A program made the translations under genes and the position numbers. This document shows, piece by piece, positions 1 to 59,684 of a stretch of DNA of 64,000 nucleotides. The notes under the pieces were generated by a model. That model did not search any database and was not told the DNA's origin. It worked only from the letters and a program-made list of their open reading frames with translations. Origin of the DNA: an uncultured Bacteroidales bacterium (GTDB lineage: Bacteria; Bacteroidota; Bacteroidia; Bacteroidales; UBA3824); NCBI GenBank assembly GCA_937877455.1, contig CALFIU010000189.1, positions 28,852-92,851 of the forward strand, given 5' to 3'. Positions within the stretch are counted from its first letter, which is position 1. Every line of letters starts with the position of its first letter.

Positions 1-2
1 AA

Positions 3-653
3 CTTACCTTCCGGGAATTCTCCCTCGAACTTCTTTTGACAGAAGCAAGGGGCCGTAATGAACGACGCAGGAAGAGGAACTATGCTGCAGCACACTTTCC
101 ACCAGATATCCGTTCCATCGATGAATTCGATATCTCCGAACTGGAATCCGGCATAACAGAGGGACAAATCAAGCGCCTTAAAGAACTGAACTGGATCGAC
201 ACCCATGGAAACATCATCTTCGCTGGTCCTCCCGGTCTTGGGAAGACCATGCTTGCCTGCGGGCTTGGGCTGGAGGCTATCAATAACGGCTATACCGTCT
301 GCTTTGAACGCATGGCCAACTTTGTGTCAATCATGGATAAAGCCGCTGCGGGCGACCGATCCTCCGGTTTCCGCTTGAAGAATATCCTGAAAGCCCAGCT
401 GGTTCTGATAGACGAGATTGGGTATACACCCATCTCCCGCAGCCAGGCCAACCGCTTCTTTACATTCATCAGCAACTGCTACCGTACCACCTCCGTGATC
501 TTCACTACCAACAAACAGGTTTCTGAATGGGCAGAGGTTATGGGCGACGCGGACTTGACAGGCGCTATGCTTGACCGGATCCTCAGCCATGCGGCGTGCT
601 TTTCACTGAAGGGCGATTCCTACCGACTAAAGCACCCTGAACTCTTCATTTAA
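3..653 (+). CDS. istB: IS21-family helper ATPase IstB (5' end outside window)
   Basis: Frame open from position 3. Walker A GPPGLGKT, Walker B LVLIDEIGY, and TTNK...EW...DRIL motifs typical of IstB/DnaC-like ATPases. Confidence 0.9.
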   Translation, partial: LTFREFSLELLLTEARGRNERRRKRNYAAAHFPPDIRSIDEFDISELESGITEGQIKRLKELNWIDTHGNIIFAGPPGLGKTMLACGLGLEAINNGYTVCFERMANFVSIMDKAAAGDRSSGFRLKNILKAQLVLIDEIGYTPISRSQANRFFTFISNCYRTTSVIFTTNKQVSEWAEVMGDADLTGAMLDRILSHAACFSLKGDSYRLKHPELFI

Positions 654-680
654 GCTATCTATAACCACTCGGTTGTGAAT

Positions 681-840
681 GGAAAATCTTCTTACCGTAA
701 ACCAGGAAAAAGTCCTTACCGAGATAGTGGAAAAAGTCCTTACCGTGTAATAGGAAAATTTGCTTACCAGGATTATGGAAAACTCCTTACCGGACAAATA
801 GAAAAACTCCTTACCTTACCACTGGAAAAAGTGCTTGACA
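681..840 (+). repeat. Seven direct repeats GGAAAAnnnCTTACC at ~24-bp phasing (IS21-type multiple transposase-binding sites)
   Basis: Copies start at 681, 705, 729, 753, 777, ~800 and 825. The last copy runs into the terminal ...TGACA. Confidence 0.8.
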
Positions 841-1873
841 TTCACAAGAAATAACCATATATGAACGAGGAAAGCCACGGATTATAACGCCAATCCATAT
901 TAAAGACAGGGTTATTCAAAAAGTATTATGCGACTATGCGCTTGTGCCAATATTATCTAAAACTTTGATATATGATAATGGAGCAAGTCTTGAAGGAAAA
1001 GGTGTTTTATTTTCAAGAAATCGAATGCTTCAACACCTTAGAAATGCGGTGAAAGAATATGGAACTGATTTTTATGTTCTCTCGTTTGATTTCAAAAGTT
1101 TCTTTGACAGCATACCGCATAAAACATGCAGAATGATGCTTAATAGATATATCTGCGATCAAGAAATAATTGCTTTGACAATGGATATTATCAAAGCGCC
1201 ATATCGTGTAAAAATAAATAAAATAAAAGATAAAGAAGAAAAACAAAAACAACTTAAACTTCTTGATAATGATGAGTTATGCGGAATTTGTCTTGGCAGT
1301 CAGGTATCTCAAATAATGGCTCTTGTTATTGCTAACGACATTGACCACTACATCAAAGATATTAAGAAATGTAAATATTATACAAGATATATGGATGATG
1401 GAAATATTTTCCTTAAAACTAAAGAGGAATTGAATGATCTTCTTTGCGGCATGAAAGAGATAGCAGAAAATCTCGGATTACACTTCAACTTGACTAAAAC
1501 TCATATTACGAAGATTAGTAAAGGATTTACATTTTTAAAGGTACACTATTCTGTCACGGACACGGGAAAAATAGTCAAAGTATTAGTACGATCTGGAACT
1601 GTAAGAATGAGAAGAAAGTTAAAGAAGTTTGAAAATAAAATTCAAGATGGGAAAATGACGATTGATAATGTCTATGATTCAATTCAATCATGGGTCGCGC
1701 ATTCAAAAGTTGCCAATTCTTATACGACAGTTAGAAGTATGTTGAAATTATATAATGAAAAGTATAATGGATACAAAATTACAAAGAAATGGGAACATGT
1801 TAAAGGAGGAAAGAACAGTGAGTTATTACAAACTGATAAGTGGGCAGAATATCGTTGGGGTCGTGTCACTTGA
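839..1873 (+). pseudogene. Reverse transcriptase, 5'-truncated by the IS21 insertion (DGR-like or retron-like RT core)
   Basis: Frame reads HSQEITIYERGKPRIITPIHIKDRVIQKVL from 839 and is closed by TGA at 836-838 at the IS end. RT motifs present: SFDFKSFFDSIPH, LGSQVSQ, YTRYMDDG. Confidence 0.75.
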
Positions 1874-2573
1874 CAACTTTAGGCGATATCAGGCTAAACA
1901 CGGTATAGTTCTGTTCTCAGATATAGACACGGCGCAATACGTGGAATTTAGGGGAGTCTATTATAGGGATGACTGGCTGAAGGCTACAACAACTGACAGA
2001 ATCCAATATGAAGATGTCTCTATAATATCTATTGACGAGACAGAATATAATGCGCTAATTGAAGCGTTTGAAACAAATGATGAAATTGAAATCGAGCCAA
2101 CTGAAGAGCCGATTGACAATACAATACCACAAGATGAAAACGAGCAAGTAACTTTAGAATTTGTTCGCGATGCAAAAATTGCTCAAATGAGCAAAATATG
2201 TCATGATACGATAGTAAACGGAATAGACGTTGTTTTGAGTGATGGTGAAAGCCATCATTTTTCTTTGGAAATCGAAGATCAAATTAAAATACAGGCATTG
2301 GCTCTGAAGGCGCAGAATGGAGAAAGTACGCTTTTCTGGCACGAAGATGATATGCCGTGTAAATTTTATTCTGCAAATGATATTTTAGCTATATACACAG
2401 CGCTTGAGAAAATACAGACTATAGAAACGACATGGTTTAATTCATTAAAGATGTATATCATGTCTATGGAAACAATCGAACAAATAAGCGCAGTTACATA
2501 TAGAACAGAAATACCAGAGGAATATCAAAGTGAGGTTTTAAAATATTTACTTAGCCAACAGGATGGTGAGTAA
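1818..2573 (+). CDS. Phage tail-fibre-associated protein (DUF4376-like C-terminal region)
   Basis: GTG start 8 nt after AAAGGAGGAAAG. The C-terminal half resembles DUF4376 proteins of prophage tail modules (recalled similarity only). Confidence 0.5.
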   Translation: MSYYKLISGQNIVGVVSLDNFRRYQAKHGIVLFSDIDTAQYVEFRGVYYRDDWLKATTTDRIQYEDVSIISIDETEYNALIEAFETNDEIEIEPTEEPIDNTIPQDENEQVTLEFVRDAKIAQMSKICHDTIVNGIDVVLSDGESHHFSLEIEDQIKIQALALKAQNGESTLFWHEDDMPCKFYSANDILAIYTALEKIQTIETTWFNSLKMYIMSMETIEQISAVTYRTEIPEEYQSEVLKYLLSQQDGE

Positions 2574-3063
2574 CATGAAAAACATGATTTTGAAAAACTT
2601 AGTTTTATTCTTATCTGGATTTTGTCTATATATGACGATAGAGTGCCTTTTTCGTGGGTACTCTTTTCCGTTGATGGGTTGTTGCGGCGGATTATGTGTT
2701 GTCATACTTGATAAGATTAACGATTACATTTCGTGGGATGTTGACTTATTTTGGCAAGCCTTATGCGGTGCTTTATTAGTGACAATAATGGAACTTGTCA
2801 TAGGAACTATTGCAAAATATACTGACTTACTTCCTGTTATGTGGGATTACTCTTCTCTTCCGTTGAATTTTAACGGAATAGTATGCGTACCATTTTTTAT
2901 AGCATGGCTATTTTTAAGTGTAGTAGCAATCTTTTTAGCTGATGCAATAAATTATTACATTTTTGAAGATACTGTTGTTCCGCACTATGTATTATTTGGT
3001 GGGTTGTTTGTAATTGTCTTTCATAAAAAGAAATGTGATATAGAGGTGAGAACAAATGAATAA
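2563..3063 (+). CDS. Multi-pass membrane protein (PF06541 / putative ABC-transporter type IV-like)
   Basis: 4-5 hydrophobic segments and a WDYSSLPLNFNG motif. Start overlaps the preceding stop. Confidence 0.5.
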   Translation: MVSNMKNMILKNLVLFLSGFCLYMTIECLFRGYSFPLMGCCGGLCVVILDKINDYISWDVDLFWQALCGALLVTIMELVIGTIAKYTDLLPVMWDYSSLPLNFNGIVCVPFFIAWLFLSVVAIFLADAINYYIFEDTVVPHYVLFGGLFVIVFHKKKCDIEVRTNE

Positions 3064-3349
3064 TGTTATTGTTGAATATAATGATTTTTCAAAAGAAAAC
3101 TCAAATGTAGAAAAGATTACTTTTGATTTGCTACCAAATGTATCTCTTACTTTTTCACAAGGAACAAGTGCGGATACAGACGGAAACGATGAAACAGAGA
3201 ACACTGATACAGAAACTAATGAAGGTGTGCTTTCAATATCAATGGTTGACAAGCAAACTGATGAAACTGAAATAACAGGGGCGATTGACATTGAAACGCT
3301 TAATGCATTAATCAGGAGCTTAATTATTTTCAGAGGGCAGATATCATAA
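3056..3349 (+). CDS. Hypothetical acidic protein
   Basis: Co-oriented ORF with start overlapping the upstream stop. D/E/T-rich. Confidence 0.4.
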   Translation: MNNVIVEYNDFSKENSNVEKITFDLLPNVSLTFSQGTSADTDGNDETENTDTETNEGVLSISMVDKQTDETEITGAIDIETLNALIRSLIIFRGQIS

Positions 3350-3801
3350 TGGCAAAGAAAGATAAGAGATTATTTGCAATCCTTATTATGACACTTGTTA
3401 TTCTTATGTGTATACTTTTATCTATTGGTTTTAAGAAATCTAATAAAAGTGGAATTTTATTGGAGAGTAAAGGTCGAGAAAAGGTGCTAAATCAGTCAAT
3501 TTCGATTTTCGGATTTTCTGAATTACACATGAAATCTGGCGAATTAGAACAATCATTCGATTTTCGCAATCCAAAAACAAATAATTGCTATATGAATATA
3601 GAATTACTATTATCAGACGGATCGCAACTATTCGAGATAAAGAGAATCGAACCCGGATATGGGATAAAGGAAGTACAATTAAATAAAGTTTTGGAAAACG
3701 GTGATTATTTGAATTGCCTTTTTAACATTAAATGCTTTTCATTGAACGATAATGCGCAGCTTAACGGTGCGTCAATGTCTGTCAATCTATATGTGAGGTA
3801 G
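3349..3801 (+). CDS. Hypothetical protein with N-terminal transmembrane anchor
   Basis: ATGA stop/start overlap with the upstream ORF. Hydrophobic N-terminus LFAILIMTLVILMCILLSIGF. Confidence 0.45.
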   Translation: MAKKDKRLFAILIMTLVILMCILLSIGFKKSNKSGILLESKGREKVLNQSISIFGFSELHMKSGELEQSFDFRNPKTNNCYMNIELLLSDGSQLFEIKRIEPGYGIKEVQLNKVLENGDYLNCLFNIKCFSLNDNAQLNGASMSVNLYVR

Positions 3802-3807
3802 AGATAG

Positions 3808-4257
3808 ATGAAGAAAATATTTTGTACAATCATATCAATTATAATGCTGATCGCTAATCCAGTTTACGCATCGGAACAAACGGCGCAAGCAACAATTACC
3901 TATACTTGTGATGATAGTTTTTATATTGAAATACCATCGACAATAAATGTCGGCGAAGAATGTTATATCAATGCCGTAGAAGTAAATATATCTCCAACAA
4001 AAAATGTATATGTGGATTTAGGACATCCAGAAGGATACGTCAGGTTATATAACGAAGGAAATGAAAACGAATATATAGATACATATTTTCAAGATGGCAG
4101 CGGAAATACATTAACCGTTACAAACCTAAACCTTGCAATGTTTTCTTCTGGTTCTTCTGGTTCAAGCCAATCATTCACAACATATGTAGAAGATACAACT
4201 GGAAAAACTGCTGGTCAGTATACTGGCGTTGCTATGTTTTGGATTCATTGTGATTAA
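3808..4257 (+). CDS. Secreted hypothetical protein (signal peptide)
   Basis: MKKIFCTIISIIMLIANPVYA/SEQ signal-like N-terminus. GAGG-type RBS upstream. Confidence 0.5.
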   Translation: MKKIFCTIISIIMLIANPVYASEQTAQATITYTCDDSFYIEIPSTINVGEECYINAVEVNISPTKNVYVDLGHPEGYVRLYNEGNENEYIDTYFQDGSGNTLTVTNLNLAMFSSGSSGSSQSFTTYVEDTTGKTAGQYTGVAMFWIHCD

Positions 4258-51732: not shown

Positions 51733-51765
51733 AATACTTTTTGAATGTCAACAACAACGGCAACG

Positions 51766-51838
51766 TGCGCCAGATGGGATTTGAACCCATGACTTTTCGA
51801 TTAAAAGTCGAATACTCTACCATCTGAGTTACTGGCGC
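51766..51838 (-). tRNA. tRNA-Lys (anticodon TTT)
   Basis: GCGCCAG/CTGGCGC acceptor, D arm ACTC-AGATGGTA-GAGT, anticodon arm TTCGA-CTTTTAA-TCGAA, and T arm ATGGG-TTCAAAT-CCCAT. Confidence 0.9.
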
Positions 51839-58892: not shown

Positions 58893-58958
58893 CCTTAATA
58901 CCTTTTGTCTTGAATGATAGGGGCGGTCTTACGCCGCCCGATATATAGTGAGTTTTAT

Positions 58959-59684
58959 TTAGAATGTTTCACCGTTATAGATACGGATTGAGAAGCCCGG
59001 CACAACCCCAATGACGTAGCTCGCGTAGCTGTTGTTGCCCACGTTGCCGCTGTTGCCGACATAAATGAAGTACGTAGTGTTGCTCAGACTCGGAGAGCAA
59101 ATCCAATACCAGTCTGTTTCTCCTTTATAATTTTTGCATCTTTCTGCTTCTGTCTGCAAACCATCGAACAGAATATCATCTTTTCCTGAATAATAATCTG
59201 TCTTTATTAGATTAGCCAAAGAGAGGATATTTACTTTTCTGCACGACTTAAACACTTCGCCATCTACCATCGCAATATGCTCGATGAACTTCATCCTGTC
59301 AACAAGCTCAATCGGCATCTTATCAGTCAGATCATCAAGGTATTCGTCCATTTCCTTCATACTTGATTTTCCAATTATATCTTTTGCGACAAAATAAACA
59401 TCATCATATTCATTTGTATGATTGATGTGTTCAACCACAAAGGTAATAACTTTATCTCCAACAGGAATATCAAGTGTTTCCTTCAACCTGTAAGTGTCCT
59501 TGATAACATCGCCGATTTTGCGATCCTCGTATGATATGTATCCATGCTTGTATGTAAAATCTTCAGCGCCGATTTCTTCAAGTTCCAAATCATTATCATT
59601 GACAGCCTCAAGCACAATACCATTTTCAAGTTTCACATATTTCTTTCCTGTGCGCTTGTCGCAAAATCTCTTTACGCCTTCCAT
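58959..59684 (-). CDS. Hypothetical protein
   Basis: Co-oriented ORF with an AGGAGG RBS downstream of the bracketed promoter. Confidence 0.5.
   Translation of the reverse strand: MEGVKRFCDKRTGKKYVKLENGIVLEAVNDNDLELEEIGAEDFTYKHGYISYEDRKIGDVIKDTYRLKETLDIPVGDKVITFVVEHINHTNEYDDVYFVAKDIIGKSSMKEMDEYLDDLTDKMPIELVDRMKFIEHIAMVDGEVFKSCRKVNILSLANLIKTDYYSGKDDILFDGLQTEAERCKNYKGETDWYWICSPSLSNTTYFIYVGNSGNVGNNSYASYVIGVVPGFSIRIYNGETF

Follow-up and report, generated by a model that had tools for sequence, protein, structure and literature searches.

The sequence analysed, called the window below, is a stretch of 64,000 nucleotides from the draft genome of an uncultured Bacteroidales bacterium (NCBI GenBank assembly GCA_937877455.1; 198 contigs, 4.52 Mb). 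It corresponds to positions 28852-92851 of contig CALFIU010000189.1 (C189) and opens inside an insertion sequence (IS) of the IS21 family, directly followed by the 3' part of a reverse transcriptase (RT) gene that was assigned from its sequence to a phage diversity-generating retroelement (DGR). The 28.8 kb upstream of the window were fetched as two segments, L001 (C189 10852-30851) and L002; window positions are converted to L001 positions by adding 18000 and to C189 positions by adding 28851. Read along the plus strand of L001, the DGR comprises a giant target gene with a variable repeat (VR1) at its 3' end, a hairpin, an accessory gene, the template repeat (TR), a spacer of ~270 nt and the RT gene. 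The RT gene has 428 codons, and the IS is located between codons 89 and 90. The positions of all features are collected in Table 1.

The RT frame is open from window position 839 to 1873 and is closed on its left by a TGA at 836-838, within the IS, the last base of which is 846. The first-pass annotation, made from the window alone, had described this frame and had placed the missing N-terminal part of the RT beyond the IS. That part was found directly to the left of the element, and the target-site duplication that had been proposed as a check is present on both sides of it. The duplication is 7 bp long, or 8 bp (AAGAAATA; L001 15903-15910 and window 846-853) if the last A of the IS is counted, and the RT proper resumes at window position 854. 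When the IS and one copy of the duplication are removed and the two RT fragments are joined, an open reading frame (ORF) of 428 amino acids results, the sequence across the empty site reading ...GATAAAGAAATAACCATAT.... In the protein alignment the 5' piece ends with ...SDKEI at column 90 and the 3' piece starts with TIYERGKPRI at column 91, with neither gap nor overlap; the nucleotide sequence of the empty-site model can likewise be aligned gap-free to the undisrupted RT genes of two related loci, L003 and L004. The 5' fragment, the IS, the duplication and the 3' fragment are contiguous on a single contig. An intact RT ORF is absent from the locus, the gene being split after codon 89 by 2,936 bp plus 7 bp.

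The product of the 3' fragment matches Pfam RVT_1 (E 3.3e-17) and contains all of the RT motifs that had been quoted earlier: IYERGKPRIITP, SFDFKSFFDSIPH, the motif 4 sequence LGSQVSQ and YTRYMDDG with the catalytic YMDDG. The fingertips motif RGKPRIITP is present as well. Its database homologues at 57-85% identity are almost all 424-431 amino acids long, and it is 83-85% identical to intact RTs of 428-429 residues. Gene callers annotated a product of 309 amino acids starting at GTG 944, and this product gave weak sub-threshold matches to Drt3a and group II models; the possibility was considered that the ORF is a complete, natural RT of another kind (of retron, Abi, UG or DRT type). Both the open frame and the homology extend upstream as far as window position 854, however, close homologues are all 427-430 residues long, and the N-terminal 89 residues lie to the left of the IS. 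The SQ motif and the cognate TR and VR repeats also speak against such an RT, as do the scores of the NCBIfam RT families, which are far below their cut-offs. A natural start at GTG 944, which the first-pass annotation had named as an outcome that would overturn its reading, is refuted by the joined ORF, by its gap-free alignment and by an intact RT in a sibling phage (see below); GTG 944 is the first start left in the broken frame, and an independent 309-residue enzyme is hardly credible.

Table 1. Features of the disrupted DGR and of its second target, in L001 or window coordinates.
Feature	Position	Strand	Remarks
Giant target gene, 2,882 aa	L001 5606-14254	+	Ends in VR1
VR1	L001 14097-14245	+	3' end of giant target
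GC-rich hairpin 3' of VR1	L001 14301-14319	+	GGGCGG/CCGCCC
Accessory gene, 264 aa	L001 14366-15160 (C189 25217-26011)	+	Between giant target and TR
TR	L001 15222-15370	+	149-155-nt repeat of giant target 3' end
RT 5' fragment	L001 15644-15910	+	89 codons, starts MNKNIRIKK..., directly left of IS
istA	L001 16190-17866	+	558 aa
istB 3' part	window 1-653	+	Whole gene L001 17859-18653, 264 aa
IS21-family element, right-hand 846 bp	window 1-846	+	Whole element 2,936 bp
IS right terminal region	window 684-846	+	Five direct repeats, ~24-nt spacing, GGAAAAAGTCCTTACC-like; ends ...TTCACA
Target-site duplication, right copy AGAAATA	window 847-853	+	Left copy L001 15904-15910
RT 3' fragment	window 854-1873	+	Codons 90-428 and stop
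Tail-fibre-like gene (DUF4376)	window 1755-2573	+	PHROG 1348 'tail fiber protein', E 3.8e-15; overlaps RT 3' end
Hairpin 3' of VR2	window 58921-58939	-	GGGCGG-CGTAAGA-CCGCCC, identical to L001 14301-14319
Second DGR target gene, 241 aa	window 58959-59684	-	C-terminal domain resembles that of giant target
VR2, 108 nt	window 58991-59098	-	Matches TR positions L001 15264-15371

The complete IS extends over L001 15911-18846 (C189 26762-29697), its left 2,090 bp lying outside the window. It carries istA and istB in the same orientation, the start of istB overlapping the stop of istA by 8 nt. IstB, the AAA+ helper ATPase, shows Walker A (GPPGLGKT) and Walker B (LVLIDEIG) motifs; the full-length protein matches Pfam IstB_IS21 with E 2.8e-58 and NCBIfam IS21_help_AAA with 210 bits (cut-off 200), and the C-terminal 216 residues, encoded by window 3-653, match the same Pfam family with E 1.8e-55. 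IstA contains an rve domain (35.1 bits, above the Pfam cut-off of 32.6). The ends of the element are TG...CA. Its left end (L001 15911-16108) starts with TGTG and holds five repeats spaced by ~24 nt, and the left and right terminal arrays are mutually inverted (families D1 and D3 and pairs I1-I7 of the repeat search). IS21-family elements, in the descriptions of ISfinder, combine istA for a DDE/rve transposase with istB for an AAA+ helper, have TG...CA ends with several transposase-binding-like repeats each and produce target duplications of 4-8 bp. The GC content of the IS is 47.7%, whereas contig and genome have 36.2% and 37.4%, respectively; it drops from ~50 to ~31% over the junction with the RT, which bears out the earlier remark that the element is visibly richer in GC.

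The boundaries of the IS are regarded as fixed because independent copies end at the same bases. A 2,936-base unitig in a bioreactor metagenome run is identical to L001 15911-18846 (0 differences), the sequence in another metagenome run continues past 18846 into unrelated sequence, and in an ENA contig, L009, the match (99.96% identity) runs to exactly this terminal base of the IS, after which a different flank follows. The IS is present in one copy in the genome, and three metagenome runs that contain it lack the phage. A search for its DNA in 40 related genomes, 24 from the same genus and 16 from the same order, gave no match, nor did a plasmid database. Among the database relatives of IstA there is one identical entry, the next is at 62% identity and most are at ~50%; the few with names belong to Clostridia-type metagenome-assembled genomes (MAGs), and in reference genomes a single relative was found (48% identity, a Eubacteriales MAG). 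The element is thus a rare, compositionally foreign and probably still active member of the IS21 family, and by the usual naming rule it would count as a new IS. In L009 (positions 1-1108; another metagenome) the IS lacks its left 275 bp and abuts an unrelated, transposase-like ORF of 355 amino acids on the opposite strand; this arrangement may reflect truncation, the nesting of one insertion in another or a join made during assembly.

Since the source is a 198-contig draft with 3.3% contamination and the IS occurs alone in other samples of apparently the same study, the junctions between IS and RT might have been an assembly chimera, the real phage RT being intact. A chimera would yield neither a perfect 7-8 bp duplication of the exact target nor true TG...CA ends placed such that removal of the IS restores the frame base for base. 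It was rejected on these two grounds and is very improbable. Judged by the sequence, the element is one that transposed into the RT gene of the phage DGR, as the first-pass annotation had proposed; the duplication and the empty site of the sibling phage agree with this.

The RT is classed as a DGR-type enzyme because of its SQ-type motif 4, its best match among solved structures and the sub-threshold scores of other RT models. The DGR RT signature is (I/L/V)GxxxSQ in motif 4, joined by a catalytic YxDD (PMC3521204), and LGSQVSQ as well as YMDDG are nearly invariant among the homologues of the protein. The best match to a solved structure was chain A of PDB entry 8ub7 (8ub7_A), a Bordetella phage DGR RT (E 1.3e-15), which was identified as bRT through the numbering of residues I181, G182 and Q187 (bioRxiv 10.1101/2023.10.23.563531). 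The NCBIfam models for group II intron, retron and DRT enzymes are all far below their cut-offs, and a retron, Abi or DRT identity was rejected on the family scores, the SQ motif and the TR/VR repeats. The class that had been suspected from the motif and from the neighbouring tail-associated genes is thereby supported, and the set of avd-like gene, TR and VR that had been suggested as a further check was found upstream of the IS.

TR and VR1 were aligned over 149 nt and differ at 15 positions, all 15 of which are TR adenines. Adenines make up 40 of the 149 TR positions, and the chance of such an adenine-only pattern is ~3e-9. The C-terminus of the giant target matches Pfam DUF6273 (E 3e-13). 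When the TR was searched against the genome, a third copy was found at C189 87842-87949, ~60 kb from the TR, in the gene for a protein with a weak DUF6273 match (20.5 bits, below the cut-off of 23.5). This repeat, VR2, is 88.9% identical to the TR, and 11 of its 12 mismatches are at TR adenines. The distance from the end of the VR to the stop codon is 3-12 codons in the two targets. The 3' ends of the two VRs are identical (...GGGGTTGTGCCGGGCTTCTC; ...GGGCTTCTC) and differ from that of the TR, which ends in ...GGGATTCTT. The hairpins that follow them are embedded in a conserved AACTCACT...ATC context. By analogy, the 3' ends of VR and TR together with the hairpin mirror the arrangement of the Bordetella initiation of mutagenic homing (IMH) and IMH* sites. 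A second target is also present in a complete IMG/VR relative of 121 kb with terminal repeats, in which a 243-residue homologue carries a second VR ~50 kb away; its mismatches are at TR adenines at 14 of 14 positions, and those of the VR in the giant gene at 22 of 23. The locus as a whole is a DGR by descent which is now almost certainly disabled.

Searches with the accessory protein against Pfam, NCBIfam and the PDB, with sequences as well as with profiles, gave no useful match. Its AlphaFold model (pLDDT 94.3) consists of two helical bundles. The top three structure matches of residues 139-260 were 2gsc (Z 17.5) and 2rld (Z 15.4), both of the S23-IVP family, and 4dwl (Z 13.6), the Avd protein of the Bordetella phage, for which 107 of 107 residues were superposed with a root-mean-square deviation of 2.2 Å. 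The predicted fold of the C-terminal half gives good but not conclusive support for an Avd-like domain. Avd is only about half as large as the whole protein, which has an additional helical domain at its N-terminus, without known match. It belongs to a family of ~130 representative clusters, mostly of 260-270 residues and lacking a Pfam model; some proteins of ~130 residues match one half only. A distant BLAST search of INPHARED with the region from the accessory gene through the TR to the 5' part of the RT gave a single 114-nt match and no annotated relative.

The state of the locus before the insertion is seen in L018, a sibling phage from a different metagenome assembly, which is 97.6% identical at the nucleotide level on both sides of the IS (L001 13288-15910 corresponds to L018 1-2620, and L001 18846-20000 to L018 2613-3767). 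The two flanks overlap in L018 by exactly the 8 bp of the duplication, as expected of a single-copy empty site. Its RT is an uninterrupted protein of 428 residues, 424 of which are identical to those of the joined RT, and its accessory protein is at least 90% identical. The TRs of the two phages are the same (0 differences in 155 positions). VR1 differs at 24 of 150 positions, namely 21 substitutions, 20 of them at TR-adenine sites, and an indel of 3 nt, compared with 39 of 2,473 positions in the rest of the alignment. Because VR1 has diverged at adenine sites over an identical TR, mutagenic homing must have continued after the two phages split, and the DGR, on these comparisons, is one that was active until recently.

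The related loci L003-L006 and L018 are free of the IS and share, in this order, the giant DUF6273 target, an accessory protein of 264 or 265 residues, the TR, the RT, the tail-fibre-like gene and a CmpB-like membrane protein. Their VRs are adenine-specific (for example, 13 of 13 mismatches at TR adenines), and L004, L005 and L006 combine the same RT protein with three different VRs. Some VRs of L004, L005, L006 and L018 also carry in-frame indels of 3-6 nt relative to the TR beside the adenine substitutions; such indels are at odds with simple replacement by cDNA.

The insertion itself appears to be recent. The two parts of the split RT have not decayed further, with four substitutions in 428 codons relative to L018 and neither stops nor frameshifts, and the TR, the accessory gene and the spacer of the IS-bearing phage are intact. 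A recent event is pointed to by the undecayed RT, by the perfect duplication and by the 99.96-100% identity of the IS with other copies. The same signs of preservation, together with the fact that the IS-bearing genome still closes an assembly cycle of ~155 kb, would also be expected if the IS were a selected lock or slow switch that fixed an advantageous pair of VR sequences and could be undone, either through recombination with siblings that lack the IS or, rarely, through precise excision between the duplications. They are equally expected from a very recent neutral or mildly deleterious accident, however, and only one such genome is at hand, none of ~35 related loci carrying an IS in the RT gene. 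Elements of the IS21 family are not known for precise excision, and selection for such a switch is quite unlikely. A related idea, that the insertion acts, once good variants have arisen, as a natural lock on a two-target DGR that recombination with IS-free siblings of the same community could reverse, and that the phage could ferry the IS between hosts, is only slightly less doubtful; the same IS does occur, at 99.96-100% identity, with different flanks in the same kind of community.

We propose that the DGR of a phage of ~155 kb, serving VR1 and the remote VR2, was hit by the 2,936-bp element, and that transposition between codons 89 and 90 of the RT gene duplicated 7-8 bp and separated the N-terminal extension of the enzyme from its fingers, palm and thumb. 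The 5' piece now stops 11 codons inside the IS, and the first in-frame start available to the 3' piece is GTG 944, past the RGKPRIITP motif. Neither of the IS-internal frames fuses to the 3' part of the RT. Since the 5' ORF ends in the IS, the 3' part lacks a usable start ahead of the catalytic fingers and no fusion to the IS is formed, the RT would be non-functional; adenine mutagenesis of VR1 and VR2 would be halted and both sequences would be fixed unless an RT is supplied in trans. The insertion point aligns to residue ~66-67 of bRT, where the N-terminal extension meets the fingertips loop (F66, R74 and I76 are part of this loop). The N-terminal extension of bRT binds two Avd protomers, positions the template and contacts a template phosphate via K29 (bioRxiv 10.1101/2023.10.23.563531). 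We consider it highly probable that the IS insertion split the RT of the DGR, with the likely consequence that both targets were frozen. A role of these targets in receptor binding, and of the DGR in tropism switching, is suggested by the position of the genes and by the C-terminal VR domain.

Several points weigh against this account. IstA scores 118 bits against the NCBIfam transpos_IS21 model, below the cut-off of 160; because of this score the protein is classed as a divergent transposase, by sequence still of the IS21 family. The assignment of the accessory protein to Avd comes from a predicted structure only, and helical bundles give a high background of Z scores, four-helix bundles being common. 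We infer the loss of RT function from the structure of the gene alone, and the freeze of VR1 and VR2, which we regard as probable, in turn from the broken gene. The source sample may also have held a mixed population of IS-bearing and IS-free phages.

The remaining objection is that the DGR is not frozen, an RT acting in trans from a co-infecting IS-free sibling, or less plausibly from a second DGR of the same genome, keeping VR1 and VR2 diversifying. This second DGR is situated on contig C83 (positions 1-1950; L015) and has an intact RT of ~360 residues with IGLGSQISQ and YMDDF motifs; its TR (~668-722) has a corresponding VR, truncated by the start of the contig, with mismatches at TR adenines at nine of nine positions. 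Functions of the BPP-1 DGR can be supplied in trans from a plasmid. A sibling with an identical TR, a closely similar accessory protein and an intact RT does exist, and a run from the same bioreactor study contains ~37% of the words of the phage sequence, as expected for a relative at ~97% identity. Complementation by the sibling requires co-infection of one cell, however, and the C83 RT is 29% identical to the split RT and is accompanied by an unrelated TR. Continued diversification by an RT in trans is accordingly considered improbable, and a DGR that has lost its own RT to the IS remains the preferred reading.

The genomic surroundings are those of a phage. Four contigs (C173, C101, C189 and C162) close through end overlaps of 55 bases into a cycle of ~155 kb; the assembled genome of the IS-bearing phage is accordingly circular or terminally redundant and lacks the bacterial flanks of a prophage. 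IMG/VR relatives of 113-171 kb are in line with this size. The genome bin contains 17 SusD genes and is Bacteroidota-like; mis-binning of the phage contigs is possible. Genes for a tail fibre or spike and for an endolysin are located 5' of the DGR, and the tail-fibre-like gene and a membrane protein gene (together window 1755-4257) as well as a tyrosine integrase gene are located 3' of the RT, so that the earlier placement at the end of the late region, next to tail-associated genes, holds. The position of the tail-fibre-like DUF4376 gene is kept in L003-L006, L018 and L019, and the IS may exert polar effects on it. An exact copy of a 26-nt internal segment of the TR (TGAATGTCAACAACAACGGCAACGTG) with unmutated adenines was also observed at window 51741-51766, abutting the 3' end of the phage tRNA-Lys (51765-51838, minus strand); it may be the relic of a stray cDNA or of a recombination event.

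The two phages, 97.6% identical and with the same TR, form a natural before-and-after pair in which the RT is intact or split. They allow one to ask whether a phage benefits or suffers when its giant fibre and a second, early-region protein cease to hypervary. The IS cuts the RT at the boundary between N-terminal extension and fingers, which recent structural work has tied to Avd binding. With regard to annotation, the 309-residue RT of the gene finder is a fragment, and the accessory gene codes for an unannotated candidate relative of Avd of double size. Knowledge of DGRs and of IS21 elements in general is unchanged by the present case.

The element resembles IS21, IS408 and IS5376 in the order of istA and istB, the TG...CA ends, the end repeats, the size of the duplication and its length of 2.9 kb. 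It departs from the norm of the family in its IstA, which is 62% identical to its nearest relative and below the NCBIfam cut-off.

The DGR is like that of Bordetella phage BPP-1 (bRT, Avd, TR and the VR of Mtd; PDB 8UB7 series and 4DWL) in that a tail-region gene carries a VR at its 3' end, the TR is preceded by an Avd-like gene, the RT has a YMDD motif, the 3' ends of VR and TR show an IMH-like difference and a hairpin follows the VR. The BPP-1 RT has IGxxxSQ at the position of LGSQVSQ. Unlike in BPP-1, the RT has 428 residues instead of 328 and is broken, the accessory protein is of double size, the target is a protein of 2,882 residues with a DUF6273-type C-terminus and there is a second, remote target. 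In the Quimbyvirus DGR of Bacteroidota gut phages one RT and one TR serve two VRs (Benler et al., 2021; PMC8008677). As in Quimbyvirus, one VR is part of the structural module and the other belongs to a small gene, of the C-terminal lectin type in Quimbyvirus, far away among early or defence-related genes. The likeness is one of DGR layout. The present genome is ~155 kb in size and its single RT ORF is interrupted by the IS, whereas three overlapping frames encode the RT of Quimbyvirus, which was judged to be active.

The closest precedent for the disruption is the DGR of Acaryochloris marina MBIC11017, in which the RT ORF is broken by a mobile element and TR and VR are intact with adenine-only substitutions (PMC3521204, Fig. 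4B). Its authors read this case as a very recent inactivation (Schillinger et al., 2012, DiGReF; PMC3521204). Both loci combine an RT disrupted by an insertion element with a clean TR/VR pair. The A. marina DGR is part of a cyanobacterial chromosome, whereas the present one belongs to a large phage, was disrupted by a divergent IS21-family element and has two targets; its empty site is documented by a sibling with an identical TR. DGR RTs disrupted by insertion elements were thus already known in 2012 (PMC3521204), and the locus described here is a well documented example from a phage.

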